From assembly GCA_050331735.1 (NCBI GenBank), contig JBHJGN010000008.1, positions 25,297-89,296 on the forward strand: a stretch of DNA of 64,000 nucleotides, read 5' to 3'. Shown here one piece after another: positions 4,791-64,000 of this stretch (position 1 is the first letter of the stretch; every line of letters starts with the position of its first letter). Made by a program: the position numbers and the translations under genes. Source of the DNA: Cyanophyceae cyanobacterium. Its GTDB lineage: Bacteria > Cyanobacteriota > Cyanobacteriia > Cyanobacteriales > JBHJGN01. The notes under the pieces were generated by a model, which had not been told where the DNA came from, did not search any database, and saw nothing but the letters and a program-made list of their open reading frames with translations.

Positions 4791-7058
4791 CTAGCTATCC
4801 GCTTCGCTGACTCGACGAACATTTAAGACATCGCTCATATTTTTGATTTGGTTGAGGCTGCGCTCAAGCTGTTGACAATCGCGGATATCAATACTTAAAG
4901 AAATGAGAGCGGGTCTACCCGTGCTGGTTTTGACCCCGGCATTACGCACGTTGATGTTGTGATCGCTTAAGCGGGCCAAAATATCTCGGAGAACGCCAAC
5001 GCGGTCAAGCACCTCAATCTGAATATCGACCGTGTAGGTTTGTCGCCCGTTAGATTCTACGGGATTCCAGCTCACCGGAATTAACCGTTCCCCCGGTATA
5101 TCCTCTACGTTAGAGCAATTCTGGTGATGAATCGAAATTCCCCGAGAGCTTTGGGTGACAATGCCGATAATTGGTTCGCCAGGAACCGGTTTACAGCAGC
5201 CAGCAATGTAGTAGAGCAGTCCTTCCACTCCAGCAATGGGAGATTTGCTTTGAGAAGTGGAGCGCTCTTGCAGTAGTGCCGACTCAGAGCGACTGCGATC
5301 GCTTCCAGAAGGTTTTTGAGGCTGCGGCTCCGGAGATAGTTCGGCGGTTGGCTGCTGAACTTGGATAGCTTCTCGTAGACGGTTAAGAACCTGATTGAGA
5401 GTCACTTCTCCATATCCCAGTGCCGCCAATAAATCTTCCACTCGCTGATAGTTGCATCGCTGAGCCACAGACTGCATCGGGTCTGACTTCAGCAGCGCCT
5501 CTAAGCCACTTTTGCCCAACTCTTTTTCCAGCAGTTCGCGTCCGCGAGCCACATTCTCTTCCCGATGCGATCGCTTGTACCACTGGCGAATCCGGTTTCG
5601 GGCTGTCGGCGTCACCACAAAGTTAAGCCAGTCTAGGCTCGGATGACAGTTCTTTTGAGTAATAATTTCGACAATATCGCCGTTCTCCAACGGCTGATCT
5701 AACACAGTCCAGCGACCGTTGACTCTCGCTCCTTTCATGTGGTTGCCCACTTCGGTATGAATGCGATAGGCAAAATCCACCGGAGTCGCGCCTCTCGCTA
5801 AGGCTACCACGTCTCCTTGAGGCGTGAACACATAAACGTCATCCTCAAAGAGATTGTCTTTAAGGCTATCGATGTACTCTTGAGCATCCTTGAGGTCTTT
5901 TTGCCACTCTAGAAGCTGACGCAGCCAGGTAAATTTTTCATCCTCGGACGTCAGTTGCGTACTGCTACTGCTGGTTTCTTTGTATTTCCAGTGGGCGGCA
6001 ATGCCGTATTCGGCAATATGATGCATTTCCAGAGTCCGAATTTGCACCTCCAAAGGACGACCGTTGAGGCCGATAACCGTCGTATGCAGCGATTGATAGC
6101 GATTCGGTTTGGGGAGGCCAATGTAGTCCTTAAACCGTCCTGGGATTGGTCTAAACGCATCGTGAACAACCGCGAGGGCGCGATAGCACTCGTCTTTCTT
6201 CTCGACGATAATGCGGAGAGCAGCAATGTCAAAAATTTCCCCGAATTCCTTCTGTTGCCGTGCCATCTTTTGATAAATGCCATAAAGATGCTTCGGACGC
6301 CCCTTCAACTCAAACACCTTGATTCCTAAAGCTTCCAGGCGATCGCGCACCATTTTGTTAACCTTGTCAATTCTCGCCTCGCGATCGCTGCGCCGTTCAG
6401 CCACCAGTTCTTGGATCTCTCGATAGGCATCTGGCTCTAGGTATTTAAAGCACAGATCCTCCAGTTCCCACTTAAATCGTCCAATCCCCAGCCGATTTGC
6501 TAAAGGAGCAAAAATTTCTCTCGTTTCCCGAGCAATGCGCTGCTGTTTCTCTGGGCTGAGATGCTCAAGCGTCCGCATGTTATGAAGCCTATCGGCAAGC
6601 TTAACTACGATCACGCGGATATCTTGGGCCATCGCCACAAACATGCGGCGAAAATTTTCGGCTTGCCGCTCCGTTTTACTCGAGAAATTGAACTTTGAAA
6701 GCTTAGTCACGCCTTCGACTAGCTGACGAACCTGAACCCCAAAGCGTTCCTCGATTTCCTCAGGAGTCACATCGGTATCTTCAACCACGTCGTGTAGAAA
6801 ACCAGCGGCAATCATGGCGTGATCGCCTCCTAGATCTCTCAGTAACCCAGCAACAGCGATAGGATGGGCAATATAGGGTTCGCCGGATTTACGAGACTGA
6901 CCTTCGTGAAGCTCGTAGGCAAACTGAAAAGCGCGACAAATTAAATCAGCCTCTTCATCTGACGTATCGCCGTTAGCTTGATGAGTTAAGCATTCCTGAA
7001 GCCAGCGGGGAAGCTGAACGGGCGGTTGAGATTGGGTGGTTAGGGCGATCGCGTACAT
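4791..7058 (-). CDS. spoT: Bifunctional (p)ppGpp synthetase/hydrolase (RelA/SpoT homologue)
   Basis: HD domain (HDVVEDT), synthetase (KPNRYQSLHT, EVQIRT), TGS (TPVDFAY), ZFD (CCKPVPG) and ACT domains. Confidence 0.96.
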   Translation of the reverse strand: MYAIALTTQSQPPVQLPRWLQECLTHQANGDTSDEEADLICRAFQFAYELHEGQSRKSGEPYIAHPIAVAGLLRDLGGDHAMIAAGFLHDVVEDTDVTPEEIEERFGVQVRQLVEGVTKLSKFNFSSKTERQAENFRRMFVAMAQDIRVIVVKLADRLHNMRTLEHLSPEKQQRIARETREIFAPLANRLGIGRFKWELEDLCFKYLEPDAYREIQELVAERRSDREARIDKVNKMVRDRLEALGIKVFELKGRPKHLYGIYQKMARQQKEFGEIFDIAALRIIVEKKDECYRALAVVHDAFRPIPGRFKDYIGLPKPNRYQSLHTTVIGLNGRPLEVQIRTLEMHHIAEYGIAAHWKYKETSSSSTQLTSEDEKFTWLRQLLEWQKDLKDAQEYIDSLKDNLFEDDVYVFTPQGDVVALARGATPVDFAYRIHTEVGNHMKGARVNGRWTVLDQPLENGDIVEIITQKNCHPSLDWLNFVVTPTARNRIRQWYKRSHREENVARGRELLEKELGKSGLEALLKSDPMQSVAQRCNYQRVEDLLAALGYGEVTLNQVLNRLREAIQVQQPTAELSPEPQPQKPSGSDRSRSESALLQERSTSQSKSPIAGVEGLLYYIAGCCKPVPGEPIIGIVTQSSRGISIHHQNCSNVEDIPGERLIPVSWNPVESNGRQTYTVDIQIEVLDRVGVLRDILARLSDHNINVRNAGVKTSTGRPALISLSIDIRDCQQLERSLNQIKNMSDVLNVRRVSEADS

Positions 7059-10307: not shown

Positions 10308-10373
10308 TAAAAGAAGCGCTTGGGAGTCTTGCCGTGTTTCGACCCCAAACGCTTCTTGCTTTACTCCTCACAC
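10308..10373 (-). ncRNA. yfr2: Yfr2-family cyanobacterial sRNA
   Basis: Minus strand begins GTGTGAGGAGT (complement of the Yfr1 ACUCCUCACAC motif), then a long hairpin with GAAACAC in the loop and a U-run; TACAGT -10 element 6 nt upstream (10380-10385). Confidence 0.75.
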
Positions 10374-10527
10374 AACTACACTGTAGGGTCACATCTGGTG
10401 AAAAGTTAACGGCAATGTGACACTTATAGGAGTGTCCGCCGAAATCGGTGATTACTGTAAGCGTCATTCTGGATACCAGATCCCTTTCCTTTAAACTTGA
10501 TCGGTGAAAATTACTTTTGATTATTTT

Positions 10528-18876: not shown

Positions 18877-20061
18877 ATGGCGCTTTTAGCGAAAGAAGAG
18901 ATTAAAACTTTAGTAGAACAGCCTCAAGGACCGTGCGTGTCTGTGTTTCTGCCCACCCACACAGCAGGAGCAGAGATTCAGCAAGATCCAATTCGCTTCA
19001 AAAATTTAATGAAAGAAGCTGAGGAAAAGTTAGTCGAACAGGGAATGCGCCCAGCAGAGGCGGTTGAAATGCTCAAACGCGCTTACGATCTAGATAAAGC
19101 CAATTTCTGGCGGCATCAAAGTAATGGGTTAGCGGTATTTGTTGCTAAAAATTTCCTTCGCACCTATCGCTTACCGCTAGAGTTTGAAGAGATAGTGGTA
19201 GTGAGCGATCGCTTTCATGTCAAACCCCTGATGCCCCTGCTGACTGGAGACGGCAGGTTTTATATTTTGGCCCTCAACCAAAAGCAGGTCCGCTTTCTCG
19301 AAGGAACGCGCAACCACATTAAAGAATACGATCTCAACAGCTTAGAAGATGTGCCGGAAAGCTTGAGAGAGGCAGTCCTCCAGTACGAAGACTCCGAAAA
19401 CCAAACTCAGTTTGAAACCGTTGGTTCTGCTTCGCCTAGTTCGCCCCCCGGATCTAGCCCCGGAACGTTTCACGGCAGTGGTGCTGATGAAGATAAACAG
19501 ATCAAGATTCTGCAATTCTTTAACCAAGTAGATGCGGGACTGCGGGAGTTTTTCCAGGGCGATGATGCTCCGATGGTCTTAGTCGGTGTAGATGAACTGC
19601 TGGCCATTTATAAGGATGCCAATAGCTACCCCCATCTGCTCGAAGAAGCCGTGGCCCGCGAGCCAAAACTGATCAAGCCCGAGGAACTCCACGAACAGGC
19701 GTGGATGGTGGTCAGCCCCCACTTCCAGCAGGCACGCAAAGACGCGGCTGAGCGCTACCGAGAGTTCAGCGGCAATAGCCCCGAGTTGGCATCTCACGAC
19801 ATTCGAGAGATCGTCAAAGCAGCTTACTACCAGCGCGTCGATACCTTGTTTGTGGCCATAAACCACTATCAGTGGGGACAGTTCGAGCTACAGGAAAATG
19901 CCGTCCATCTGTACGATAGCGAGGAAGCGGATAGCGAAGACCTATTGGATTTTGCCGCCCTGCATACGCTGCTCAACGGCGGTACGGTATTTGCCGTCGA
20001 ACCAGATCAGGTTCCCTCTCAAGCTTCAGTGGCCGCTATTTTCCGCTTTCCAGGGGAATAA
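18877..20061 (+). CDS. Bacterial archaeo-eukaryotic release factor-like protein (baeRF3/baeRF7 type)
   Basis: CVSVFLPTH, IRFKNL, GLAVF, RFHVKPL, RVDTLFV, GGTVF...AAIFRF. Confidence 0.75.
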   Translation: MALLAKEEIKTLVEQPQGPCVSVFLPTHTAGAEIQQDPIRFKNLMKEAEEKLVEQGMRPAEAVEMLKRAYDLDKANFWRHQSNGLAVFVAKNFLRTYRLPLEFEEIVVVSDRFHVKPLMPLLTGDGRFYILALNQKQVRFLEGTRNHIKEYDLNSLEDVPESLREAVLQYEDSENQTQFETVGSASPSSPPGSSPGTFHGSGADEDKQIKILQFFNQVDAGLREFFQGDDAPMVLVGVDELLAIYKDANSYPHLLEEAVAREPKLIKPEELHEQAWMVVSPHFQQARKDAAERYREFSGNSPELASHDIREIVKAAYYQRVDTLFVAINHYQWGQFELQENAVHLYDSEEADSEDLLDFAALHTLLNGGTVFAVEPDQVPSQASVAAIFRFPGE

Positions 20062-24200: not shown

Positions 24201-25646
24201 TTAATTTGCCTCTGAGAGAGGACTCTTGTCTGGATCTGAAGTTGCTGAATTTTCACTCATTTTGTCTTCGATTGACTTAGGAAGGACGAGATTTAAGAGC
24301 AAAGCGCAGAGAGACCCGACAGAGATGCCTGACTCCAAAATGCTCCGAATCTGCTCAGGAAATCCTGCTAACGCATCTGGAATAAACGTTACACCTAGCC
24401 CGGCTGCTAACGATGCGCCAACGATTACGAGGGATCTATTTGTCATTTCGATTTCTCGAAGGATATTAAATCCGGCAACAGCCACTGTCCCAAACATTAG
24501 TAGGATTGCGGCTCCAAATACAGGAGCTGGAATGGCTGTGAGAACGCCTCCAACAATGGGAAACAATCCCAAAAATGCCAAGATTCCTGCTACATAGAAG
24601 CCGATATAGCGACTGCCTACTCCGGTAAGCTGAATAATGCCGTTGTTTTGCGATAGCGTCACCGTTGGGAGAGTACTACAGCAGGAGGCGATGAATGAAT
24701 TAAATCCATCTCCAAGTAGCCCGCCCTTAAGTCGTCTGATGTATCTAGAACCTTTAATCGGTTCTCCAGTCACCATTGAGGTTGCTGTGATATCACCAAC
24801 AACCTCTAATGAGGTAGCGAAATAGATAATAGCAAAGGGAATAAAGGCAGCAAGGTTAAAATCTAAACCGAACCGGAATGGGATGGGAATATTAAACAGA
24901 GGAATGCTTCCCAGTTGGCTAAAGTCTGTCATGCCCATCAAGGCGGCAATAATGGCTCCTACCAGCAGTCCAATAATAACTGAACCCATTCTCAAAAAAC
25001 GATTTGAATTAGCGCTACAGATAGCGACAGTCAGAAATACGGGAAAGGAAACAGCCCAGTACTTTAGGCTACCGTAGTCACCAGCTTCTTGTGCCACATC
25101 TCCCCCAGCCATATCGTGCATTCCAAATCTAATTAGAGTCAAACCGATCAGGGTTACTGCTGTTCCAGTGACAATGGGGGGGAAAATAACTTGAGCAAAC
25201 TGCAAAAATCGACTCAGGATAATCTGAATAAATGAGCCAAAAAAGCCCAAGCCCAGAATAAGAGCGAGGGTTTCTTCTGGTGTTCTTCCTGCCGCACTAG
25301 CTGTAGCAATGACGCTGAAAATAGGAGGCAGAAAGGCAAAGCTTGGACCTTGAATACTGAGCAAGCCTGAGCCAATTGGACCAATTCGTCTTGCTTGAAC
25401 GAAAGTGGCAAATCCAGCAACAAATAGAGTCATGCCAATAATGTAGCTAATGCTAGCAGCATCTAAATTTAGTGCTCGACCAATTAAAATTGCTGGAGTT
25501 ACGCTAGGCACAAAAATAACACAAACATGCTGTAAAGCGACAAGAATTGCAGTTTGAAAAGGAGGATTATCCTCTAGTCCAAAAATTAAGGCACTACGAT
25601 TCTCGCTGTCAGTTTCGGACGATGGGACAACTTCTACACCAGTCAT
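24201..25646 (-). CDS. NCS2-family xanthine/uracil permease
   Basis: ALQH, GPSFAF, EVVGD, NAT signature QNNGIIQLTGVGSR. Confidence 0.93.
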   Translation of the reverse strand: MTGVEVVPSSETDSENRSALIFGLEDNPPFQTAILVALQHVCVIFVPSVTPAILIGRALNLDAASISYIIGMTLFVAGFATFVQARRIGPIGSGLLSIQGPSFAFLPPIFSVIATASAAGRTPEETLALILGLGFFGSFIQIILSRFLQFAQVIFPPIVTGTAVTLIGLTLIRFGMHDMAGGDVAQEAGDYGSLKYWAVSFPVFLTVAICSANSNRFLRMGSVIIGLLVGAIIAALMGMTDFSQLGSIPLFNIPIPFRFGLDFNLAAFIPFAIIYFATSLEVVGDITATSMVTGEPIKGSRYIRRLKGGLLGDGFNSFIASCCSTLPTVTLSQNNGIIQLTGVGSRYIGFYVAGILAFLGLFPIVGGVLTAIPAPVFGAAILLMFGTVAVAGFNILREIEMTNRSLVIVGASLAAGLGVTFIPDALAGFPEQIRSILESGISVGSLCALLLNLVLPKSIEDKMSENSATSDPDKSPLSEAN

Positions 25647-52462: not shown

Positions 52463-52710
52463 CCAAATTTAGGAATGTTTGGAAGCAACAGTGATTCCAC
52501 GAGGCTATTACTGCTAGCATTAAAGACCCACTAGCGCGATCGCAGGGCTTTTCCTACTTAGCCAGAATCTACCTAAAGAACGATCATCAAGCTGAAGCGA
52601 ACCTGCAACAGATTCTTGAGCAATACCGCTCAAGCGACAGCAGCGACTGAAGAGGCGAGTTGAGCTACGATAATAGAAAGAGCTAACCATTTGCACAGAA
52701 AGCAACTGCT

Positions 52711-52962
52711 ATGAAAATCTTAGCTAACCTAATTATTTCCGCAATTGTTGCTGCCTGGATTGGGGCTATTGCCGTTTTTTCAATTCAAAATATCGAGCCT
52801 GTATCCCTGCAATTCTTGTTATTTGAAACCATTGAGCTACCCATCGGAGTGCTGCTGGCCTTTTGTCTAGGAATTGGACTTGTGATTGGGGCGATCGTTC
52901 CTTTGTTATGGCAGCGCAAAAAGTCTGCTCGACGGCAGCGCGATCCCGAGTTTGATTTTTAA
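52711..52962 (+). CDS. LapA/DUF1049-family membrane protein
   Basis: TM helix, QN...VSLQFL, LP, second TM helix. Confidence 0.8.
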   Translation: MKILANLIISAIVAAWIGAIAVFSIQNIEPVSLQFLLFETIELPIGVLLAFCLGIGLVIGAIVPLLWQRKKSARRQRDPEFDF

Positions 52963-53070
52963 GCAAAGGAGAGGCTGAAGAAGCCGCAGAATCAGCGAAT
53001 TGAGGAGAAATTGAGTGTACTACATACTCAGTCTGTGGTATTTTTCTATATTTGGCACCAAAGCGACAGC

Positions 53071-55565
53071 ATGACGACGTTTCTTACAGACTCTACCGAT
53101 ATTGCTAGGCTCCATTTCTCATCACGGCTAAATCTTAAGCAGCGTAGTAAACTAGGACAGTTTTTGACTCCTGCCCCACTTGCTCGTTTCATGGCGGGAC
53201 AATTTAGTAATCTCTTTGGTCACGTCAGATTTTTAGACCCCGGAGCCGGAGTTGGAGCATTAACTGCTGCATTTGTAGAGCGACTATTAGCAAATCCTAG
53301 TCAAGTTAAGAGCTGTTCCATAACAGCATATGAAGTTGAACCAACTTTTCTATTCCCTTTAAGGCAATGCCTTGAAGAGTGCTGTTTAGCCTTGAAAAAC
53401 AGAGGAATACGAGCAAATTACTGTTTACTAGAAGAAAGCTTCATCAATTCCGCTGCTGTCATGAGCTTTCCTCTTCTCAACACATCCTCTATGGGGTTTA
53501 CTCACGCAATTCTGAATCCACCTTATAAAAAAATTAGTAGTCAATCAGTTGAAAAGAAAATTTTATCTAAACTTGGGATCGAAACTGTTAATCTGTACAG
53601 CGCATTTGTCTGGCTTACTATATTACAAATTTCCCAGGACGGAGAGATTGTGGCAATTACCCCTAGAAGTTTCTGTAATGGTGCTTACTTTCGTCCTTTT
53701 CGTCAAGCTTTTTTAGAAAATGTAAGAATAAAAAAAATTCATGTTTTTGAGAGTCGTTCAGTAACTTTCTCTGAAGACAAAGTCTTGCAAGAGAATATCA
53801 TTTTTTTAGCAAAAAAACAAGAAATAAGCCCAATTATGTAGAAATCTCCAATAATTCTGAAACTAAGTTAGACGAAATTTCAGAATTAAGGCGTGTTTCT
53901 TATAGCGAAGTTGTTGAAGATAACGATGCTGAGAAATTCATTCATATTGTCACAAGCTCTCTTGAAGATTCTTTTCGATTACAGATGCAAAATTTTTCAT
54001 CTACTTTAGATGAAATGGGTATAGAAGTTTCAACTGGTCCAGTTGTCGATTTTCGACTTAAATCAGCTTTAAGAAGTTGTTTAGATGAGCAAAGTGTCCC
54101 TTTATTTTACCCAGAAACTATCAAGGCGGGAAAAGTTACATTCCCACCCAGTAATCCTCGTAAGCCAATCGCTATTGAACAAAATAAAGAAACAAATAAA
54201 TGGTTAATTCAATCGGGTTGGTACGTTTTAACAAAGCGTTTTTCTGCTAAGGAGGAAAAGCGACGTGTTGTTGCTGCTGTGTGTTCTCCAGTAGATGCGC
54301 CAGCATTGGGAATAGAAAATCACCTTAACTACTACCATGCCAGAGGTCAAGGAATGAACCCTGACCTTGCAAGAGGTCTGGCAGCATTTCTCAATTCAAC
54401 TTTATTTGATCATTACTTCCGCCAGTTTAGCGGCCACACGCAAGTCAATGCAACTGATTTACGGAAAATTAAGTACCCTTGCAAAGATGATTTAGTCCGT
54501 CTAGGAAGCCAAATTGCCGATTCTCATTTTGATCAAGAGGAACTTGATGAAGTTGTACACAAAACCTTATCGATTATGGATGAAGCAACAAATGCAGTAC
54601 AGGCTGGTAAACGAATCGAGGAGGCATTAGCAATTCTCAAAGCTATTTCTGCTCCAAGAGCGCAACAGAATGAACGCTCAGCACTTTGCTTACTAGCATT
54701 AGCAGACATTCGACCTGAAGTACCTTGGAGTCAAGCGACAGCACCAAGACGAGGCATTACAGAGATGATGGAGTGGTTTCGTGTTTACTACGGCAAACAA
54801 TATGCACCAAATACACGCGAAACGGTTCGACGGCAGACGATGCATCAATTTGTACAGATGGGAATAGTTGTTGAAAATCCAGATCGACCGATTAACAGCC
54901 CAAAATGGTGTTATCAACTTCATCAACAAGCACTATCACTTCTTAAATTTTATGGCTTTGAGCAGTGGGAAGAGGCTCGTCGAAACTATGCTGTTTTAGC
55001 CACAAACTTATTGCAGGATAAAAATCGTAACATATCGATGATCCCTGTTAGTCTACCTGACGGTCAAGCCATTCAGCTATCATCAGGTGGACAAAACAAC
55101 CTAATAAAAGACATTTTAGAAGGATTCTGTCCCAGATTCACTCCTAGAGGTTTAGTTCTCTATGTGGGTGATGCTGGAGATAAATTTGTCATCAATGAAA
55201 CTCAGAAATTCCGAGACATAGGAATTGAATTAAACCCTCACGGAAAGATACCAGATATTGTAGTTTACTATGAGCGGAAAGACTGGCTTGTATTGATAGA
55301 AGCTGTGACTAGTCATGGTCCTGTCAGCGTTCTCTCGGATGCAAGTTCCGAGAGCTGCACTGACTACGTCAATTTGAAACGTCACAATGAATTGAAGCAG
55401 CTTTTTGAGTCTAGTTGCAAAGGATTAGTTTTCGTTAGTGCTTTCCCAAGCCGCAAGGAAATGACTCGGTATCTTGCTGAAATTGCTTGGGAAACAGAAG
55501 TTTGGGTAGCAGATCAACCCGACCACATGATTCATTTCAATGGTGAACGATTCCTTGGTCCATAA
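53071..55565 (+). pseudogene. Frameshifted fusion of N6-adenine methyltransferase and BsuBI/PstI-type restriction endonuclease
   Basis: GQFLTP, LDPGAGVG, NPPY in ORF1; -1 frameshift at the T7/A7 runs (53801-53817); ORF2 has STGPVVDFR, then YAPNTRETVRRQT, HGKIPD, EAVTSHGP, IAWETEVW. Confidence 0.85.
55323..55371. repeat. 45-bp in-frame palindromic insertion flanked by GTCA direct repeats
   Basis: GTCA-gcgtt-CTCTCGGA-tgcaagt-TCCGAGAG-ctgcactgactac-GTCA interrupts HGPV|NLKR. Confidence 0.75.
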
Positions 55566-55834
55566 GAAGATCCAGAACATCGTTCCTGAAAATATGGTTG
55601 TGAAAGTGCATCTGAAAAAATAATCAAGCAGACAATTGAGAAATCTGAGTTGTAATAACATAAATACCTACCGTCGCCTATTTAAGCCGTTGAATGTTAC
55701 TTCTTCCTCGAGACAATGCTCTGGTACTAGTGTTACTAGACAAATTTTATCAATCTTCGCTACTCCCTACTTAAAGGATGAGCGACATAATAGAAGCAAG
55801 AAGGTTTAGCTAATCGGCAAATTAGGAGATTTTC

Positions 55835-56710
55835 ATGTTTTTGGTCACGGGCGCAACCGGATCGCTAGGACGGAGGATTGTGCGGCAGATACGAGAGCAA
55901 GACCTGAGCGCAAAAGCTTTTGTGCGCTTATTCTCCCGCTATAGCGAACTAGAACACCGAGGAGCAGAAATTTTCATTGGCGATTTACACAGAGAGCAAG
56001 ATATTCAAAAAGCCTGTCAGGGAATGAGATACATAATCAGCGCTCACGGTTCTGACGGAGATGCTCAAGCGCTTGACTACCGAGCCAATATTGAGCTAAT
56101 CGACTGCGCCAAACAGGTTGGCATTGAGCATTTTGTCTATATTTCCGTCCTCGGGGTAGAGCGGGGGTACGAAGATGCTCCGGTGTTTAAAGCCAAGCGA
56201 GAGGTAGAGAAATATCTCATCGCTAGCGGAATCCCCTATACCATCCTGCGCCCTGCCGGATTTGCTAACAATTTGCTGCCGCTCGCTGAACGGTTTCGCG
56301 ATACAGGTATTTATCTGCAAATTGGCGATTCAAAAAATCGGACTTCTATTGTCAGCACCGACGATCTCGCCAAAATTGCGGTCCATTCTGTCAGTATTGA
56401 AGATGCCAAAAATAGAGTGTTATCTGTTGGGGGAGCGGACGTGCTCAAGCGAGAAGATATTCCCCGGATTTTTGCTCGCATTTTTAAGCGAGAGCCGATT
56501 TTGATTAATCCTCCGTTAGTTGCGTTTGATGCGGTACGAAGTGCATTAGGGCTATTCAATCCGCAAGCACAGCGTTCTTTAGGAACGTTGCGAACTCTGC
56601 TTGCTAACGAATTTTTTTGCACTCCAGAAGAAATTGCTACCATCGAATCTCTTTATCAGCTCAAGATGGAATCACTAGAAAGCTTCCTGCGACGTTATTT
56701 AGGCAGTTAA
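55835..56710 (+). CDS. Atypical SDR / NmrA-like NAD(P)H-binding protein
   Basis: VTGATGSLG, YTILRP. Confidence 0.88.
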   Translation: MFLVTGATGSLGRRIVRQIREQDLSAKAFVRLFSRYSELEHRGAEIFIGDLHREQDIQKACQGMRYIISAHGSDGDAQALDYRANIELIDCAKQVGIEHFVYISVLGVERGYEDAPVFKAKREVEKYLIASGIPYTILRPAGFANNLLPLAERFRDTGIYLQIGDSKNRTSIVSTDDLAKIAVHSVSIEDAKNRVLSVGGADVLKREDIPRIFARIFKREPILINPPLVAFDAVRSALGLFNPQAQRSLGTLRTLLANEFFCTPEEIATIESLYQLKMESLESFLRRYLGS

Positions 56711-56920
56711 GCGCTGCCAGCGCCGGGAAAGGATAAGGAGAAAAGGGCGTTTTTTGGTTTCTCCTGATGCCTGACCATCTGCCATAGTCTCCTTTGAATA
56801 CTGTAGAGGGTGTTGAATCAGCGAGGGATACAGGCACAGTATTAAAAGGAGACAATCAGCCATCAACTATTAACAACAGGTTGAACTAAACTCGATGAAG
56901 ACGAGAACGGCTTTACTCAC

Positions 56921-57499
56921 TTAATTAGATGAGCCAGTAAAATTAATCCGGGCAGAACCCAAGTACAGACCAGTACTTTGCTCTCCTACTGGAAAGGCAG
57001 TTACGCCAAACTGATAAACGCCCCCGAAATGGGGATTTTTTCTGGCTTTGACAGAAACGGTTACCGTATTGCCAGGTTCTACCGGTTCGTCAAAGACAAC
57101 CGTCACTTCATTGTCATCAGGTTCCATCCCGCCGATGCTAGACACTGCTAGAGAACGGCTAATGTTGAATTGGTCTGTAGCGGTGGCGCTACTTTCGCTG
57201 GGGTTGAAACTGATTTCTTCGACGTTTTCTTGTTGATTAATAGTAAGCGCTTCTAAAGGTGCGCCAGCATTTTCTGGCACTTGAATTTGAAAATGATAGG
57301 TTGAGGACGCACTAGGAGCAATATGGCTCGCGTTAGCATCTACTAAACGCGGCGCTCTCACAAAGGTAGACCGTCCGCTTCTGCCTTCAATGGCTTTTGC
57401 AGATGAACTGACTAAAGTAGCCGGAATAATTGACCCGAATAGTAAAGCCCCAATCATACTAACTTGCAGAAATCGCTTGGATCTGATGATGTTAAGCAT
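56921..57499 (-). CDS. DUF2808 domain exported protein
   Basis: Signal peptide, PVEPGNTVTV, NP..GGVYQFGVTAFP. Confidence 0.85.
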   Translation of the reverse strand: MLNIIRSKRFLQVSMIGALLFGSIIPATLVSSSAKAIEGRSGRSTFVRAPRLVDANASHIAPSASSTYHFQIQVPENAGAPLEALTINQQENVEEISFNPSESSATATDQFNISRSLAVSSIGGMEPDDNEVTVVFDEPVEPGNTVTVSVKARKNPHFGGVYQFGVTAFPVGEQSTGLYLGSARINFTGSSN

Positions 57500-57952
57500 A
57501 GTTGCCTCCGATTGTATATAAACGATGTTGCTGAGTGTGAAGCAATCTATCTCGGAAAACTACTCTTCACGATTTGAACACTGTTGAACGGGAGATAGCG
57601 ATGAACTTAGCCTAATATGGGCGGAAGAGTCGTTTCAAAGTTAAGCGAGGATGTATTGCTTTCTATAATCTATGAGAACGTATCCAGGTGAGCGTCTTGT
57701 TAAAGCTAAATGAGAAAGAACTGAGCGCTACTAAAGAAATCTAAATTAAGCTGTATTAATAATTACATTGTCGAATATATTTCAAGTAATTCGGGGAGAT
57801 GCTTCACAAAAATTTGTGTTTTTACTGTTGACAAACCAAGTGGGAAATGCAGATTCTAAGCGTGGTCATATCGTCCTCACCGAGCGATCGCCAACAACCA
57901 GTTGTGATGAACCCATCGTTAAGCTAAGAACAGTGACTAGAAACGAGGCAGC

Positions 57953-58903
57953 ATGGAATTGTTTAAACAGATCGAGGATGCCAGAGAACACCTCCGGGGA
58001 CAGGCGCTGGAAACACCTGTCATGACTTCGAGTACGCTGAATGAGCGACTGAACGCCAAGGTCTTTTTCAAATGCGAAAACTTTCAGAAAGGGGGAGCGT
58101 TTAAGTTTCGGGGCGTTTACAATGCCCTCTCGCAGCTTTCAGATGCCGAACGCGATCACGGCGTCATTACCCACTCCTCAGGAAATCATGCCCAAGCCGT
58201 TGCTTTAGTCGGGCGACTGTTAGGCATTGCCACCACTGTGGTGATGCCAGCCGATGCGCCAGCGATTAAACGCGCTGCGACTCAGGAATATGGAGCGGAA
58301 ATCGTGCTGTATGACCCAAAAACGACCACCCGGGAAGCACTGTCTCACTCTCTTCAGCAGCAGCATGGCTACACCATGATTCCTCCGTTTGACCATGCAG
58401 ACATTATCGCGGGTCAAGGAACCGCTGCCGTTGAGCTGATTGAAGCGGTAGAATCTTTAGACCTGGTCCTGGTTCCCTGCGGTGGCGGGGGACTGTTGAG
58501 CGGTACGGCGATCGCCCTCAAGCATCTGTGTCCCGGCTGTCGAGTGGTGGGCATTGAACCAGAATTAGCAGACGATGCTGCCCGTTCGTTTCGTACTCAA
58601 CAACTGCATACTATCAGTAACCCACCCACCATCGCTGACGGAACGCGCACTGCCTCTCTCGGTCAGCTCACGTTTCCCCTCGTACTAGAGTACGTAGACG
58701 ACATGCAAACGGTTTCCGAAGCGGCGATCGCTGCCGCCGTCCAGTATTTGTTCTACCGAATGAAGCTTGTCGTTGAACCCTCTGGCGCACTCGGTTTAGC
58801 AGCCCTATTGAGTCGCAACATTGAGTCAAGAGGACGAATTGGTGTTATTCTCAGCGGTGGCAACGTAGATGGGACAACATTGTATCATTTGCTTGGTGCT
58901 TAG
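57953..58903 (+). CDS. PLP-dependent serine/threonine dehydratase family protein
   Basis: KCENFQKGGAFKFRG, SSGNH, GGGGL, EPSG, SGGN. Confidence 0.92.
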   Translation: MELFKQIEDAREHLRGQALETPVMTSSTLNERLNAKVFFKCENFQKGGAFKFRGVYNALSQLSDAERDHGVITHSSGNHAQAVALVGRLLGIATTVVMPADAPAIKRAATQEYGAEIVLYDPKTTTREALSHSLQQQHGYTMIPPFDHADIIAGQGTAAVELIEAVESLDLVLVPCGGGGLLSGTAIALKHLCPGCRVVGIEPELADDAARSFRTQQLHTISNPPTIADGTRTASLGQLTFPLVLEYVDDMQTVSEAAIAAAVQYLFYRMKLVVEPSGALGLAALLSRNIESRGRIGVILSGGNVDGTTLYHLLGA

Positions 58904-58935
58904 GGAGAGGAAAAAGAATGTGGGAAAAGGGATTT

Positions 58936-59355
58936 TTAAAGGTAATCAAGAAACTGCTGGGGAACGACTCGTAGCTGACCGGAAAGACAAGCTTCTCTAT
59001 CAATCCAAACAGCGGTTTTCTTCCGCTTGCCTTCGTTAAAATCAATTGCCCCTAGCTGATAGAACTGGGGGTCAGCAAAGTCACACTGATACAGTTGAAT
59101 AATTTCGTGACCGGGCTTGTTTTTAAACACAAAAATGTTTTCTAAACATCCTAAATAGCGAATATTAGTGAGTTCAGCGTCAATTTCTTCACGGAACTCT
59201 CGCTTAAGAGCCTCTAGGCTGGTTTCGCCGAAGTCAACGCCGCCGCCCATCGCTCGATAGAACGGTTGCTGTGTTGCCGGATCGACCCCTTGAGACAAAA
59301 AGGTGCGATCTCCTTGGGTAATTAACCCCAACGCCAGTACCCGAATATTTGGCAT
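58936..59355 (-). CDS. NUDIX hydrolase
   Basis: GGVDFGETSLEALKREFREE Nudix box. Confidence 0.9.
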   Translation of the reverse strand: MPNIRVLALGLITQGDRTFLSQGVDPATQQPFYRAMGGGVDFGETSLEALKREFREEIDAELTNIRYLGCLENIFVFKNKPGHEIIQLYQCDFADPQFYQLGAIDFNEGKRKKTAVWIDREACLSGQLRVVPQQFLDYL

Positions 59356-59804
59356 TAGTGATGATTATCTGAGTAAAACAGTTCTGGTCGCTCGGTGGCC
59401 CAATCTTCGTTTTGTCCACCAATAATAAGCCTTTTGATCTGGACGTACTCTTGGCTCAGTTGGCGCAGAGCGTTAATCAAAACATCGAGGGCAATCAGAT
59501 CGCTGGTTCCTAAATCAAACCAGCACCGTCCCCAAACCCCTTGATATTGCCAATCAGACATATTGTGCATTGGAGCCATCATACTTTCAGCAGCAATATC
59601 GGCCTTATAATCCATGTAGCTAATTTCGATTCCTGTTTCCTGCACCTGAAGATTTTCAGCGTTAAACCCTCCCAACTTACCAAGATAAAACCAGGAGTTG
59701 AATACTTCTTCAACGTACTGCTGTTCCATCGGTGAGGGAACGGTTTCAAACTCTAGCCAAATCCACAGATCGAAAGGGTTAAATTCGCGGAACTGTATTT
59801 CCAT
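59355..59804 (-). CDS. DUF3531 (CRR6-like) protein
   Basis: FNPFDLWIW, GKLGGFNAENLQ, DLGTSD. Confidence 0.85.
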   Translation of the reverse strand: MEIQFREFNPFDLWIWLEFETVPSPMEQQYVEEVFNSWFYLGKLGGFNAENLQVQETGIEISYMDYKADIAAESMMAPMHNMSDWQYQGVWGRCWFDLGTSDLIALDVLINALRQLSQEYVQIKRLIIGGQNEDWATERPELFYSDNHH

Positions 59805-59905
59805 TTATGACTTAGTATATTGCGGTTAAATTTAGCACAAAGGCAAGTGCCATTGTCTATCTCAAGTGTAATTCATCCAGCTTTCTTCTCTATTAACTCT
59901 TTCAG

Positions 59906-60724
59906 CTATCCCATAAAGAAAAGTTCGTAAATATTCAGTAAAACTTCGACAACAATTAAAATAACAATATACCACTCTACTCTGACAGCGCTACGATGCT
60001 GCATCAGATCGAGTACTATCTGAGCGGTACGAGAGATCAATTCTAGTTTACGTTCTAGGGCTTTATTGCGTTCGCGAATTTCGTATTCATCTTCTAGTCG
60101 CACATACAGCCGTTCCAAATTAGGATAATCCCATAGCTGTTCTGGCTTGTCTTCAATTCCTACCAAACCGACTGTGGTTTGCTGAACCATGATGTTGTTG
60201 CCAATTAGTTTTAAGAGATCTGCTCCCTGGTGACGACCATTACCAAAAGTTTTGATGCTAGCAGCGATCGGTTCGATTTTATCGAATACCTGAGTAATCG
60301 CATTTTCATAGTGGCTCAAAACAACGCTCTTGGCTAGAACATCAGCGACGATTTGCAACCGTTCGACGCTGAATTCTTTTAACTCTATGTTCCCATTATC
60401 GGTAATAATTTCTTTGGTATTGAAATTTAATTTTATTTGGGTTTCTTCAAATTCTGGTTCTTCTATTGGTTTAGTAATCCAGGGTCGCAAATTATTAATA
60501 AAAGCAGCTTCTTCTAAAGGATCGACCCCAAATAAAACAATCGCCCCATAACGCTGTAGTACTACACAACCATATTCGCCTGCGGCAATAGTTAGCGGCG
60601 AATCACCCAAACATTTAGTGTTCTCCAAAGTTCGCAAATCGAGCTTTTGCCCAATAAACATAGCGCGAACGCTGACAGTTTTTTCTCCTGCAAATTCAAC
60701 AATATTCGTTTCAGTAATATTCAT
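59906..60724 (-). CDS. RMD1/DUF155-family protein
   Basis: YGAIVLF, LAKSVVL, PEQLWD, EYEIRER, EWYIVILI. Confidence 0.88.
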   Translation of the reverse strand: MNITETNIVEFAGEKTVSVRAMFIGQKLDLRTLENTKCLGDSPLTIAAGEYGCVVLQRYGAIVLFGVDPLEEAAFINNLRPWITKPIEEPEFEETQIKLNFNTKEIITDNGNIELKEFSVERLQIVADVLAKSVVLSHYENAITQVFDKIEPIAASIKTFGNGRHQGADLLKLIGNNIMVQQTTVGLVGIEDKPEQLWDYPNLERLYVRLEDEYEIRERNKALERKLELISRTAQIVLDLMQHRSAVRVEWYIVILIVVEVLLNIYELFFMG

Positions 60725-60767
60725 CTCGCTCTAAATAGCTAATTAGTTTCGTAATCCGTAATTCGAT

Positions 60768-61313
60768 TTAACTGTGGGTAGTAACTTTAACTTCCATATC
60801 TTTATTCATTTCATAAATTTGTTTTTGTCGTCTCAAGGGACTCCATTGATACAGTAATAACTCAATCGGGTACCATAAGCTGACCCAACCAGCAATTAAA
60901 AAACCTTCGTTTAAAAACCTGTGTACTAATGTCGGTAAGTATTCTACCCTGTCGAAGAAGGTAGATATTATCAGACAGACTGCTAAAAAAAGTAGACCCC
61001 TTCGTAAAGCGCGAACTCCCTGTCCTCTTAGTGCGATTATATCGTTGGAAATCTTCTCAATCTTATGGTTACAGTAACGCTGCAAAGCATCGGCGATCGA
61101 GGTTTCGATATTTTCTGAAAGCTGATGGTCTGGAAGTAAGATTGTAGTTCGTACTTTGTCTGTTAGAGATGTGGGTTTGAGTTGATTGACAATACGCTCG
61201 ATCCCAGAACTAGAATCTGTCTGCGGGACAAAAAGATCGAATTCTGGTTCTTGGAATAAGTGTTTGATATTATCGAGCTTTAAATTGAAGTCATAGTAAC
61301 TATCGCTCATCAA
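60768..61313 (-). CDS. Hypothetical membrane protein
   Basis: Two TM helices; EGFLIAGWVSLWYP. Confidence 0.75.
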   Translation of the reverse strand: MMSDSYYDFNLKLDNIKHLFQEPEFDLFVPQTDSSSGIERIVNQLKPTSLTDKVRTTILLPDHQLSENIETSIADALQRYCNHKIEKISNDIIALRGQGVRALRRGLLFLAVCLIISTFFDRVEYLPTLVHRFLNEGFLIAGWVSLWYPIELLLYQWSPLRRQKQIYEMNKDMEVKVTTHS

Positions 61314-61461
61314 AGTAATTAAGAAAAATTAGACTTTGGACAGTAATAATATAGCCGTACAAAGTTAGATTACGACAATATCAGCGATAAGCAAGGGCGG
61401 CATAGTTTCGCTACGCTTTAAAAGCAGCATTTAATAAATAATGCCCTACTCAAGATTTTAT

Positions 61462-61706
61462 CTAAAAAAAAGAGGAAGGATTTGGTTCCTTCCTCATGTC
61501 GCAATTTTGTCGATTCGCTTGCGCTTCGTTGTTTTCTTTGAGTTTTTGCCGCAGTCGCTGCTGCTGTTTTTTAATTTGTCTGGCGCACGCTGGAGCGTGC
61601 CGCCTTTCCATAGGAAAGTCGAAGCTCGAAGCGAGCTTGCCGAACCGCCCTTTCCTTTGTCGTTGCGCCCTTGGCGACGGGGCGATTCCCAACTTTTTAA
61701 TCTCAT
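61462..61706 (-). pseudogene. Small basic protein gene frameshifted by a ~50-nt triple-hairpin insert
   Basis: MRLKSWESPRRQGRNDKGKGGS in one frame and ARQIKKQQQRLRQKLK in another, separated by hairpins at 61585-61638. Confidence 0.65.
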
Positions 61707-61708
61707 AT

Positions 61709-62542
61709 TTATCCCTCTTTGGTCGTGCGTGCGTGTTTTAACTGTAGTACGCGGTTCAATTTGCAGCTACGATAGCCTTCTAAATCTAAGGTGACGAACA
61801 TAAACCCTAAATTTTGAAACTTGGCAGTCAACTCCTCAAGGTCGATCGCGCTAACAAAAGCTTTAATTTGTTCTGGGGGTAGTTCGATCCTGGCGGTATC
61901 ACCCTGAGAACGCACCCGCAGATTTTTATAGCCCAGGTTACGCAGATAAATTTCGGCTCTACCTACCCTTTGTAGCTTTTCGACGGTAATTGCTTCGCCG
62001 TAGGGAAAACGGGAACTCAGACAGGGTTGAGCGGGTTTATCCCACCAAGAAAGCCCCAACAGCCGCGAAATCTCCCGCACTTCTAGTTTGCTTACACCCA
62101 CTTCAGCTAGAGGCGATCGCGCTCCTCGTTCTTTGGCTGCCTGAATACCTGGGCTATAGTCTTGAAAATCGTCGGAGTTAACTCCATCGATGACGTAGGG
62201 ATAACCCCGTTCTTTAGCTATGGGTTTGAGCGTGTCGTGGAGTTCGCTCTTGCAAAAATAACAGCGATTTACAGGGTTAGCAGTGTAGTTAGGGTTGTCC
62301 ATTTCACGAGTTTCTACCAGTTCGTGTTCGATCCCGATTTCTGCTGCCTGTAGCTGTGCCGCATCCAATTCTTCGGGCATCAAGGAAGGAGATACCGCAG
62401 TAATGGCAATGGCGCGATCGCCCAAAACCTCACAAGCAACTTTAGCAACCAAGGTACTATCAACTCCACCAGAGTAAGCAATTAAAGCTTGCTCCATCTC
62501 TTGAAATAAAGTTCTGAGTTGCTGTAATTTTGCTTCGCTCAT
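61709..62542 (-). CDS. larE: LarE-like PP-loop ATP-dependent sulfur transferase
   Basis: AYSGGVDS, RCYFCK, PCLSSR, LRVR. Confidence 0.9.
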   Translation of the reverse strand: MSEAKLQQLRTLFQEMEQALIAYSGGVDSTLVAKVACEVLGDRAIAITAVSPSLMPEELDAAQLQAAEIGIEHELVETREMDNPNYTANPVNRCYFCKSELHDTLKPIAKERGYPYVIDGVNSDDFQDYSPGIQAAKERGARSPLAEVGVSKLEVREISRLLGLSWWDKPAQPCLSSRFPYGEAITVEKLQRVGRAEIYLRNLGYKNLRVRSQGDTARIELPPEQIKAFVSAIDLEELTAKFQNLGFMFVTLDLEGYRSCKLNRVLQLKHARTTKEG

Positions 62543-62596
62543 CTAAAAACACGCGGGCAGCACGGAAACCCCTGTCTTTTGAGCAGGGGAGGAGTG

Positions 62597-63703
62597 CTAC
62601 GCGGGCAATTTATTGCCCGTCACCCATTGCGTCCTCCATGTGTTGTACGTTAAGAATTTAATGTCTTTGGGAATAGCTGATTGTGTTAATCTTTTCCCCG
62701 TGAAAATTGAGTGCAAGCTAATGACTTTGCGACTCGGCTCTTTCTTGGTAGGCTTCAGCATTTCACCTCCAACGTAAGTCAATCCCCATTTGGGATGCTG
62801 AACTCGCGAACCGCGTTTGAAACCAGCAGATATCGTACCCCCATAAGGAGAGCGAATCTGCCCTGGTGCGTGTTCGAGCCTGTGAAGCTGCCGTCGATGA
62901 AACCGTAGCGGCGTAACTACTAACAAGTCTTTGTTGCTAGGTTGAGATAACCCACCTACAGCAGAGTAAGCTAAAGCAAAACTATCAACGCAGTGAGCCG
63001 AAAAGACTGCTGCCATTTTATTTCTAGTTTTTTTTAGACTTAACTGTTCTCTAAGTTCGGCGCGGACTGGAGTCCGCCGACGCGCTCGAAGCGCGGCGAT
63101 TCGCTCCAGCGAATGATGACCTTGTAGTAACTCGACAGGGGCAAGTTTCTGTAATTGAGAGTAAAACCAGTCTTTTCCTACCTGAAGCGGTGAGAATGTA
63201 ATTCCCCATTTACCTCCGTAGGCTCTAGCTTTTACATCTTCAACTACAAAAACAGAAATTGGGTAGATCTTTGATAACCAATTGGCTATCCGTAACTTCC
63301 ATTGCCAACGGGCTTTGGTGCTAGGAGCGAGCGCTATTTTGTTTCTTAGCCTGTTCCATCTAGGCTGGCGACAAGGTGTTTTGCGGTAGCGTCTAGATCT
63401 ACGCATCTCGCGTCTAGTCTTGATGTGCTTTTTTACCCAATCAACTGTTACTGCCTGAATATTCAGATACTGGTGAAGGCTTGACTTAACTGTATAGCCT
63501 TCCATTCGGCTACCTGGGTCAATACCACAAGCTATAGGTTGATAATTTCTAGCTGACGGTTCTTGGTTCAGGCGAACACAAAATATGCCGCGCTTCCAGA
63601 ATGGGGTTGCTTTGCCAGACTTAATCCATCTCGCAGCACGGGCTGGAGTGGTGGGCATTAAAGGTCTTTGGTCGTAATCTACAACTGGCACTTTGCTTTG
63701 CAT
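62597..63703 (-). CDS. isrB: IsrB RNA-guided nickase (PLMP, RuvC, no HNH)
   Basis: PLMP, GIDPG RuvC-I, Arg-rich bridge helix, VEDV RuvC-II, HCVD RuvC-III, HRRQLH; 368 aa; no HNH or CxxC. Confidence 0.88.
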   Translation of the reverse strand: MQSKVPVVDYDQRPLMPTTPARAARWIKSGKATPFWKRGIFCVRLNQEPSARNYQPIACGIDPGSRMEGYTVKSSLHQYLNIQAVTVDWVKKHIKTRREMRRSRRYRKTPCRQPRWNRLRNKIALAPSTKARWQWKLRIANWLSKIYPISVFVVEDVKARAYGGKWGITFSPLQVGKDWFYSQLQKLAPVELLQGHHSLERIAALRARRRTPVRAELREQLSLKKTRNKMAAVFSAHCVDSFALAYSAVGGLSQPSNKDLLVVTPLRFHRRQLHRLEHAPGQIRSPYGGTISAGFKRGSRVQHPKWGLTYVGGEMLKPTKKEPSRKVISLHSIFTGKRLTQSAIPKDIKFLTYNTWRTQWVTGNKLPA

Positions 63704-64000
63704 GGCAGTAAGCCTGTATGTTTACTTCCCTTCGCTACTGACTAACACAGAGGAACAAAATTAGGGAGGCGTTCTGTTCGTGTTTCGGACTGCTACGTCC
63801 AGTTAGTTCAGTGTAAGTGCGGGCGGCATAAACATTCGAGGAAACAGGGCGTTCTCCCAACGCCGAGCCGTTAGCTAACGGCTCCGTCGTTTCCAACGAC
63901 GCTAATGACGCGCCCTTAGCTAGACACTGGTTTAACTTAGCCTTTACCGATTAGCTGTCGGCAGTGCCCAGCCCCCGAATAGAATTCGGGGGTTAGTGAC
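63704..64000 (-). ncRNA. omega-RNA scaffold of the IsrB element (guide would lie beyond the window)
   Basis: ~300-nt multi-hairpin non-coding leader between the element end and isrB; late CCTCCCTAAT...CCTCTGT and GCGAAGGGAA segments resemble omega-RNA 3' parts. Confidence 0.75.

Follow-up and report, generated by a model that had tools for sequence, protein, structure and literature searches.

Triple-hairpin insertions clustered at an IsrB element of a cyanobacterium point to a small, structure-conserved element family

Three short DNA segments, each folding into three consecutive hairpins, lie close together at the end of a cyanobacterial contig, in and beside an element of the IS200/IS605 type that encodes IsrB and its omega RNA, and the question they raise is what such arrays are and how they came to be there. 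The stretch that we analyzed (the window) comprises 64,000 nt of Cyanophyceae cyanobacterium (GenBank assembly GCA_050331735.1, contig JBHJGN010000008.1, forward-strand positions 25,297 to 89,296) and is the final 64 kb of its contig; the source genome is metagenome-derived and consists of 99 contigs with 5,574,582 bases. We lean towards the answer that the three segments represent copies, with copy (c) standing as a divergent relative, of a ~54-nt non-coding, structure-conserved, non-autonomous micro-element of the small dispersed repeat (SDR) or repetitive extragenic palindrome (REP) type. This interpretation is supported for copies (a) and (b), and it is plausible for copy (c), which is placed by architecture only.

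A scan for perfect hairpins (stems of at least 5 bp, loops of 3–6 nt, chained by linkers of 0–4 nt) returned exactly three triple chains in the window, along with four unremarkable doubles. These are the three arrays that a preliminary description of this DNA had singled out for their common architecture and compensating stems. Copy (a), 54 nt at 61585..61638 on the minus strand with stems of 6, 6 and 7 bp, has what proved to be the canonical order (hairpin 1, CGA, hairpin 2, GCG, hairpin 3 with a TCCA loop) and interrupts a gene for a small basic protein. Copy (b), 53 nt at 63062..63114 inside isrB with stems of 6, 6 and 6 bp, is assigned to no single strand: its outer hairpins have the canonical form when read on the minus strand, its middle unit when read on the plus strand. 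Copy (c), at 63848..63901 on the plus strand with stems of 6, 8 and 7 bp, occupies an apical stem of the omega RNA and resembles the family in its architecture, its CGA first linker and the TCC(A) of its third loop. The words said to be common to copies (a) and (b), GC-NNN-CTGGAG-NNN-GC-CG and GCTCGAAGCG, can be read in both.

The whole genome holds seven triple chains, of which three are copies (a), (b) and (c), and only in these do all stems reach 6 bp. Five genomes simulated with a second-order Markov model contained 5–12 triples with stems of at least 5 bp but only 0, 1, 0, 0 and 0 of the stricter kind; judged by these, three strict arrays within 2.3 kb are far beyond chance. Folded as single-stranded DNA, the regions of copies (a), (b) and (c) gave z-scores of -3.5, -2.8 and -3.6; for each region, 1 shuffle in 200 folded equally well.

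Each of the three copies is an insertion. Copy (a) adds a net 50 nt to the small gene (61462..61706, minus strand), shifts its frame as the preliminary description had proposed, and splits it into two overlapping frames; the segment is absent from all 12 homologues compared, including the genome's own intact paralogue. The affected product is very basic, about 60–80 aa long and conserved across cyanobacteria as a hypothetical protein (its 1548 database relatives all lack a name); it has no domain in Pfam. Copy (b) lies in frame in isrB (62597..63703, minus strand; 368 aa; Pfam RRXRR, E 3e-35), which is the sole copy of that gene in the genome. The anticipated gain of about 16 codons is exactly 16: there are eighteen codons where relatives have two, the frame remains open, and the additional codons are missing from 12/12 same-order homologues and from 22/22 closer ones that cover the site (several of the 22 being the same sequence from two collections).

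The case of copy (c) is less simple. It sits in the HEARO-type omega RNA upstream of isrB (63704..64000, minus strand, delimited by alignment with relatives), and removal of 63852–63899 (48 nt) does restore a perfect 8-bp stem, AGGGCGCG-loop-CGCGCCCT, as had been predicted. The excision does not account for the whole difference, however, since the expanded stem (63806..63919, minus strand) contains about 88 extra nucleotides, not 48, relative to a ~15-nt stem-loop in relatives, and ~33 nt (about 63806–63840) besides copy (c) are still without a counterpart there. We considered whether insertion is always into a pre-existing hairpin loop and rejected this as a rule, as it is true for copy (c) and for three related loci (L109, L160 and L258) but false for the empty sites of copies (a) and (b).

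Among the outcomes that would undo it, the preliminary description had named segments present in all homologues and an assembly artefact. Instead, homologous sites are empty, and Logan contigs, built with another assembler from one public metagenome run, span all three copies gap-free; that run may be the window's source sample, so these contigs test the assembly and not the biology. At the IsrB element's 3' end (62646–62649) the Logan contigs are interrupted, and the genome contig stops exactly at the omega RNA 5' end (64000). Word depth is 10.3 for the Logan IsrB contig, about twice that of neighboring contigs (3.8–5.9), and depth and contig breaks together suggest further copies or strains, or element-free alleles, in the sample. 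A low-depth contig from the same metagenome, with slightly different upstream sequence, shares 33 nt of copy (c) (63859–63891), and its hairpin 1 loop is approximately the complement of the one in copy (c).

Evidence that the arrays belong to a family came from a relative reached through its IsrB loci, the Waterburya metagenome-assembled genome (MAG) G301. The 397 kb of it that were sampled contained further strict triples away from isrB, and these revealed the canonical form: the order seen in copy (a), usually followed by GC, with hairpins of 15–17 nt. A loose pattern for this form matched 47 times in G301, compared with 12 matches for its control. When its minus strand is read, copy (a) can be aligned gap-free with 10 of the G301 copies; the stems differ, while 12 columns (both linkers and CTCCA) do not vary. 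In this 11-copy alignment, 87.1% of cells are paired, compared with 62.0% after shuffling (0/500 as high) and 30–44% for slid partners, and 17 of the 19 pairs have changed on both sides. The structure is therefore kept by covariation.

Counts of the loose pattern across 401 genomes were too noisy for mapping, so we used a covariance model, R1, built from the same alignment. Copy (a), which was in the training set, scored 70.9 bits; copy (b), which was outside it, scored 36.7 bits on the plus strand and 33.5 bits on the minus strand (E 1.2e-5 in 229 kb and 1.3e-3 genome-wide). Among the five relatives reached through loci, R1 matched at E <= 0.01 80 times in G301 and 3 times in G302, and not at all in three Xenococcaceae MAGs (G303–G305). 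A sample of 151 genomes of the order yielded 14 matches in G125 and 12 in G142, both complete genomes of genus g35, as well as those in the window's own genome; no match was found across the other 148. These counts are lower bounds because 150 or 38 candidates were scored per genome. Matches in G301, G302, G125 and G142 substantiate the structure-defined micro-element family that had been postulated from the window, and our data show that some cyanobacteria of the Pleurocapsales type (a single GTDB genus and the Waterburya MAG) hold tens of copies of it. Most of the copies there lie within other repeats, at the tips of hairpins, in elements with IsrB and in a gene of a group II intron. Many copies in G301 (L172–L200) have tandem heptamers (AAGTAGC or AAGTAAC) on their flanks and are contained in a small number of larger repeat families; another repeat there carries GGTGACG heptamers. 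In four large genomes of genus g71 (G232, G260, G360 and G393), the control pattern, which is the motif in reverse, was several times commoner than the motif (99 vs 16 in G260), which hints at a different small repeat family there.

The suggestion that the element is dispersed in the window's own genome did not hold. Three copies are all that it contains, and no further one was found there by the hairpin scan, a scan for TCCA/TGGA loops, the 16-mer spectrum or R1, which gave copies (a) and (b) and one marginal match at E 0.35; the loose pattern matched 35 times, as against 37 for the control. Templating from elsewhere in the genome was also examined and rejected, as the longest shared words are only 14–16 nt, about the chance rate. 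A search of Rfam gave no family matching at copies (a), (b) or (c). Two abundant repeats of this genome are unrelated to the three-hairpin element: C/T-rich tracts (CCCCTTT-type, with a 16-mer occurring up to 129 times) and a repeat of about 75–90 copies containing GGAGGTTCAAGGGCAAAGAGCTGC.

Comparison of individual copies shows that different genomes have modules in common and that, from copy to copy, these are shuffled or flipped. Hairpin 3 of copy (a) is identical to hairpin 3 of two copies in G302, whose hairpin 2 is also nearly the same, and hairpin 3 of copy (b) is identical to that of a copy in G125. In G301, the same modules are reused in different combinations and positions, and a 21-nt middle unit, made up of a hairpin with a linker on either side, is found in either orientation while the outer hairpins around it are identical; copy (b) has its middle unit flipped likewise. 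The recurrence of whole modules across genomes, together with linkers and a loop that are invariant in 11 copies, argues that the sequences were inherited or copied and not randomly written. Other copies bear signs of mobility: one has inserted into hairpin 2 of another (L197), one in G301 disrupts a group II intron-type reverse-transcriptase open reading frame (ORF), and a 141-nt insertion in G125, whose own hairpin bears a copy at its tip, is absent from 4/4 orthologous loci.

The clustering of the arrays at an IsrB element, also pointed out in the preliminary description, was borne out and extends beyond the window. The window's isrB shares 78–83% identity with relatives from Pleurocapsales, and the closest IsrB relatives (75–83% identity) belong to MAGs of the Pleurocapsales type (Xenococcaceae, Pleurocapsa and Waterburya). 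A scan of such close loci found more arrays: one of three hairpins in another loop of an omega RNA (L109), one of five hairpins that follows isrB codon 2 in frame (L114) and one that lies about 450 nt away from an IsrB element (L115). Among 52 wider-order IsrB loci (158 kb) there were 0 triple chains, and arrays were seen in the closest clade only.

GC-rich structured insertions of other forms, likewise about 50 nt long, are present in this clade. L063 and L118 carry an identical 54-nt GC-rich in-frame insertion at isrB codons ~319–336 in genes that are otherwise different; it forms one long imperfect hairpin and is absent in L062 and L117, whose IsrB protein otherwise equals that of L063. L056–L058 have a ~50-nt hairpin close to the site of copy (c), and L109 and L111 have a ~54-nt insertion following isrB codon 3. 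Altogether, 7 different insertions of at least 45 nt occupy 6 sites among 20 distinct close IsrB loci, and any figure for insertions per kilobase carries a bias, since possession of isrB was the ground on which loci were selected. The best reading of these data is that the element favors IsrB elements. The insertion in L109 and L111 is formed by a member of a second small hairpin repeat family (stem type CCAGTCGTCG...CGACGA.CTGG), which is dispersed in G301 and G302 (L159 at 19017–19052, L163 at 6462–6495, L144 and L218).

The chief rival to a mobile micro-element is the writing of hairpins in place, whereby fold-back or template-switch synthesis at nicks, for example around the IS200/IS605-type element, would create or rewrite stems and would set only their geometry. 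At the same site of one host repeat, stems can be wholly different while flanks and hairpin 3 stay the same (L154/L168/L182), and the outer pairs of certain hairpins include bases of the host (AAG in copy (a), GGCG in copy (c), AC and GG in L109). The metagenome contig in which the hairpin 1 loop of copy (c) is changed to approximately its complement fits this process as well, and so does the lack of any word of at least 17 nt from the three copies elsewhere in the genome. Such a process would not, however, leave both linkers and the TCCA loop invariant in 11/11 aligned copies or let whole modules of copies (a) and (b) reappear exactly in other genomes, and random writing would not reproduce a limited module set reused in different combinations. 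De novo writing, one of the origins put forward in the preliminary description, is thus not favored and seems to us quite unlikely, though fold-back correction may still account for the perfect stems. It is unlikely, too, that the arrays are immobile passengers spread by recombination between homologous hosts (IsrB copies or larger repeats) and by horizontal transfer of those hosts. Most copies in G301 do reside in a few larger repeat families, the closest IsrB relatives belong to an element-rich lineage, and gene conversion would explain the identical 54-nt insertion at the same site in the otherwise different IsrB genes L063 and L118. Copy (a), however, lies in a chromosomal small gene unlike the other hosts, with 12/12 homologues lacking it, copies are found in at least ten unrelated contexts, including the reverse-transcriptase ORF, and one copy is nested in another.

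A selected functional module, such as a protein binding site, a stabilizer of transcripts, a terminator or an addition to the omega RNA, would be expected to show the strong structural conservation with covariation that we observe; moreover, of three insertions observed in the coding region of IsrB, two keep the frame and leave the ORF open, and the omega-RNA copies are at stem tips. We nevertheless regard selection for function as very unlikely: copy (a) destroys a conserved gene and a copy in G301 a reverse-transcriptase ORF, copies stand in both orientations relative to host genes, Rfam gave no match, and most IsrB relatives are without any such insertion. An assembly or sequencing artefact might be suspected because the window reaches the end of its contig and the genome, derived from a metagenome, is in 99 contigs, but this is scarcely credible, as a second assembler's contigs carry all three copies gap-free and related copies exist in independent genomes and metagenomes, including single-contig genomes.

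Several results also weigh against the micro-element interpretation itself. Copy (c) was not matched by R1 at E <= 1, and no clean target duplication was found, copies (a) and (b) each replacing about 6 nt of target. R1 favors lineages like that of G301, having been trained on 10 copies from it and copy (a), with 150 or 38 candidates scored per genome. Many G301 copies lie inside larger repeats, so copy number there partly reflects hitch-hiking. Genes for Y1 (HUH) transposases are present in all genomes examined regardless of element copy number (8 in the window's genome and 3 to 43 in each of five relatives), and the element was found beside none of 18 Y1 loci scanned in 6 genomes, a subset of the Y1 loci. 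These results speak neither for nor against an HUH enzyme, which the preliminary description had named as one candidate driver. Finally, the genes flanking isrB are only 68–75% identical to those of five genomes (four of g35 and the Waterburya MAG), a distance about equal to that from other families. Import together with flanking DNA from the element-rich genus consequently has no support, and copy (a) was not imported with g35 DNA, so that the element must have been active at least once in a genome otherwise without it.

Under the micro-element interpretation, the element would be copied as single-stranded DNA folded on itself, or else spread by short-patch recombination, in either case through an enzyme of the host or of an insertion sequence (IS) acting in trans. 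It may have reached this genome with a horizontally moving IsrB element that already carried copies; the IsrB element itself is the only plausible import. Copy (a) could then stem from a later short-range hop, of about 900 nt, into the neighboring small gene, whose loss would be cushioned by the second copy in the genome. IsrB elements may be favored as safe havens, being expendable, or because IS200/IS605-type elements are exposed as single strands, and fold-back copying may act as a secondary process for stems that stay perfect or change. A bolder version of these ideas is that a micro-transposon of interchangeable ~16–21-nt hairpin modules preferentially invades single-stranded OMEGA (here IsrB) elements, while fold-back copying keeps its stems perfect yet fast-changing. 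We offer this as a speculation with a low probability of being right.

How does the element compare with known small repeats? Its nearest described counterparts are the SDRs of Nostoc and REP clusters. The SDR4–6 of Nostoc punctiforme are reportedly 21–27-nt small dispersed repeats (Elhai et al. 2008, Genome Res 18:1484), and their modules are said to consist of a hairpin with conserved edges and a variable center, to lie nested or adjacent, and to vary in presence or absence between relatives. The element described here is similar in having a 21-nt middle unit in both orientations and nested copies, but it is a fixed ~54-nt trio with linkers and a loop of its own in a different lineage; it may nonetheless belong to a published SDR family. 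In one published account, the insertion point of the repeat module SDR5 is given as exactly between bases 3 and 4 of HIP1, the highly iterated palindrome (PMC4390886); no HIP1 target was found at the three window sites. A full-text literature search retrieved no paper; its four strings came from copies in G301 and the heptamer repeat beside them, and not from the window's own copies.

Small structure-conserved elements that insert intergenically, in structural RNA genes and in frame in protein genes include the double-hairpin elements and GC clusters of fungal mitochondria and the Rickettsia palindromic elements. Their hosts, sizes and sequences are different, and the likeness to the present element would be one of behavior only. 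REPs and the related bacterial interspersed mosaic elements (BIMEs) and REP doublets forming hairpins (REPINs) resemble it in being short, GC-rich extragenic palindromes that are often clustered with alternating orientation, and many G301 copies follow a GTAG-containing heptamer, although this REP-like tag is present only as part of the heptamer repeat. No REP tag (5' GTAG or CGTC) flanks copies (a), (b) or (c). Hairpins 1 and 3 lack mutual complementarity, which sets the element apart from REPINs; it also differs from systems of REPs and REP-associated tyrosine transposases (RAYTs) in that 0/18 Y1 loci scanned are flanked by it, and from REPs in having three copies in this genome and not hundreds. 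Two papers mention REP dimers that, in some cyanobacteria, sit within longer palindromes (PMC3733652) and, for a cyanobacterial TnpA-REP subclass, REP insertions inside genes (PMC6006769). Miniature inverted-repeat transposable elements (MITEs) are characterized in the former as 70–300 bp long, with terminal inverted repeats and target duplications (PMC3733652). MITEs such as the cyanobacterial Nezha are likewise small non-autonomous insertions that are sometimes nested, but the present element is ~54 nt long, its ends are not mutual inverted repeats and it has no clear target duplication.

The window's IsrB shows the defining features of an IsrB in its N-terminal RRXRR/RuvC-type domain, its length near 350 aa and the HEARO-type RNA upstream. 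The conserved 5' end of that RNA (GTCAC...) coincides with the last base of both window and contig. Insertion-free relatives of the omega-RNA region give full-length HEARO matches below the Rfam threshold (L062, E 1e-4; L110, E 0.01), and the window's own region gave no match to Rfam HEARO at E <= 1. Between isrB and the small gene lies an intact gene for an ATP-pyrophosphatase-type protein (61709..62542, minus strand) with a weak NAD_synthase/QueC-like match, given here as context only.

Each of the four genes adjoining isrB (59907–62542) has a second, diverged copy elsewhere in the genome: the genes for a DUF155 protein and a 181-aa protein on contig C52 (81% nucleotide identity over the block 59907–61310), that for the small basic protein on contig C2 and that for the ATP-pyrophosphatase-type protein on contig C87 (72%). 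G+C content at 52500–61500 is 0.36–0.47, compared with a genome mean of 0.495 and 0.50–0.58 just upstream. This low-G+C stretch may be an island, with no donor identified. The window's only above-threshold Rfam match is a Cyano-1 RNA at 10308–10377 on the minus strand (58 bits vs a gathering score of 41).

If the sequences should match a published cyanobacterial SDR family, the novelty of these observations would fall to its host range and preferred target. The family provides clean material on the movement of tiny elements, with filled and empty sites in a protein gene, a guide-RNA gene and a small conserved gene, with covariation and with shared modules, and an element of ~54 nt made of ~16–21-nt modules stands at the lower size limit of mobile DNA. 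For the IsrB family, our data indicate that both the genes and their omega RNAs tolerate and repeatedly collect structured insertions of ~50 nt, in frame and at stem tips, which bears on how RNA-guided systems diversify and on where engineering may be possible. Were single-stranded IsrB elements indeed the preferred target of invasion, such arrays would be a natural source of new omega-RNA stems and in-frame IsrB loops, through which RNA-guided nucleases and their scaffolds could grow.

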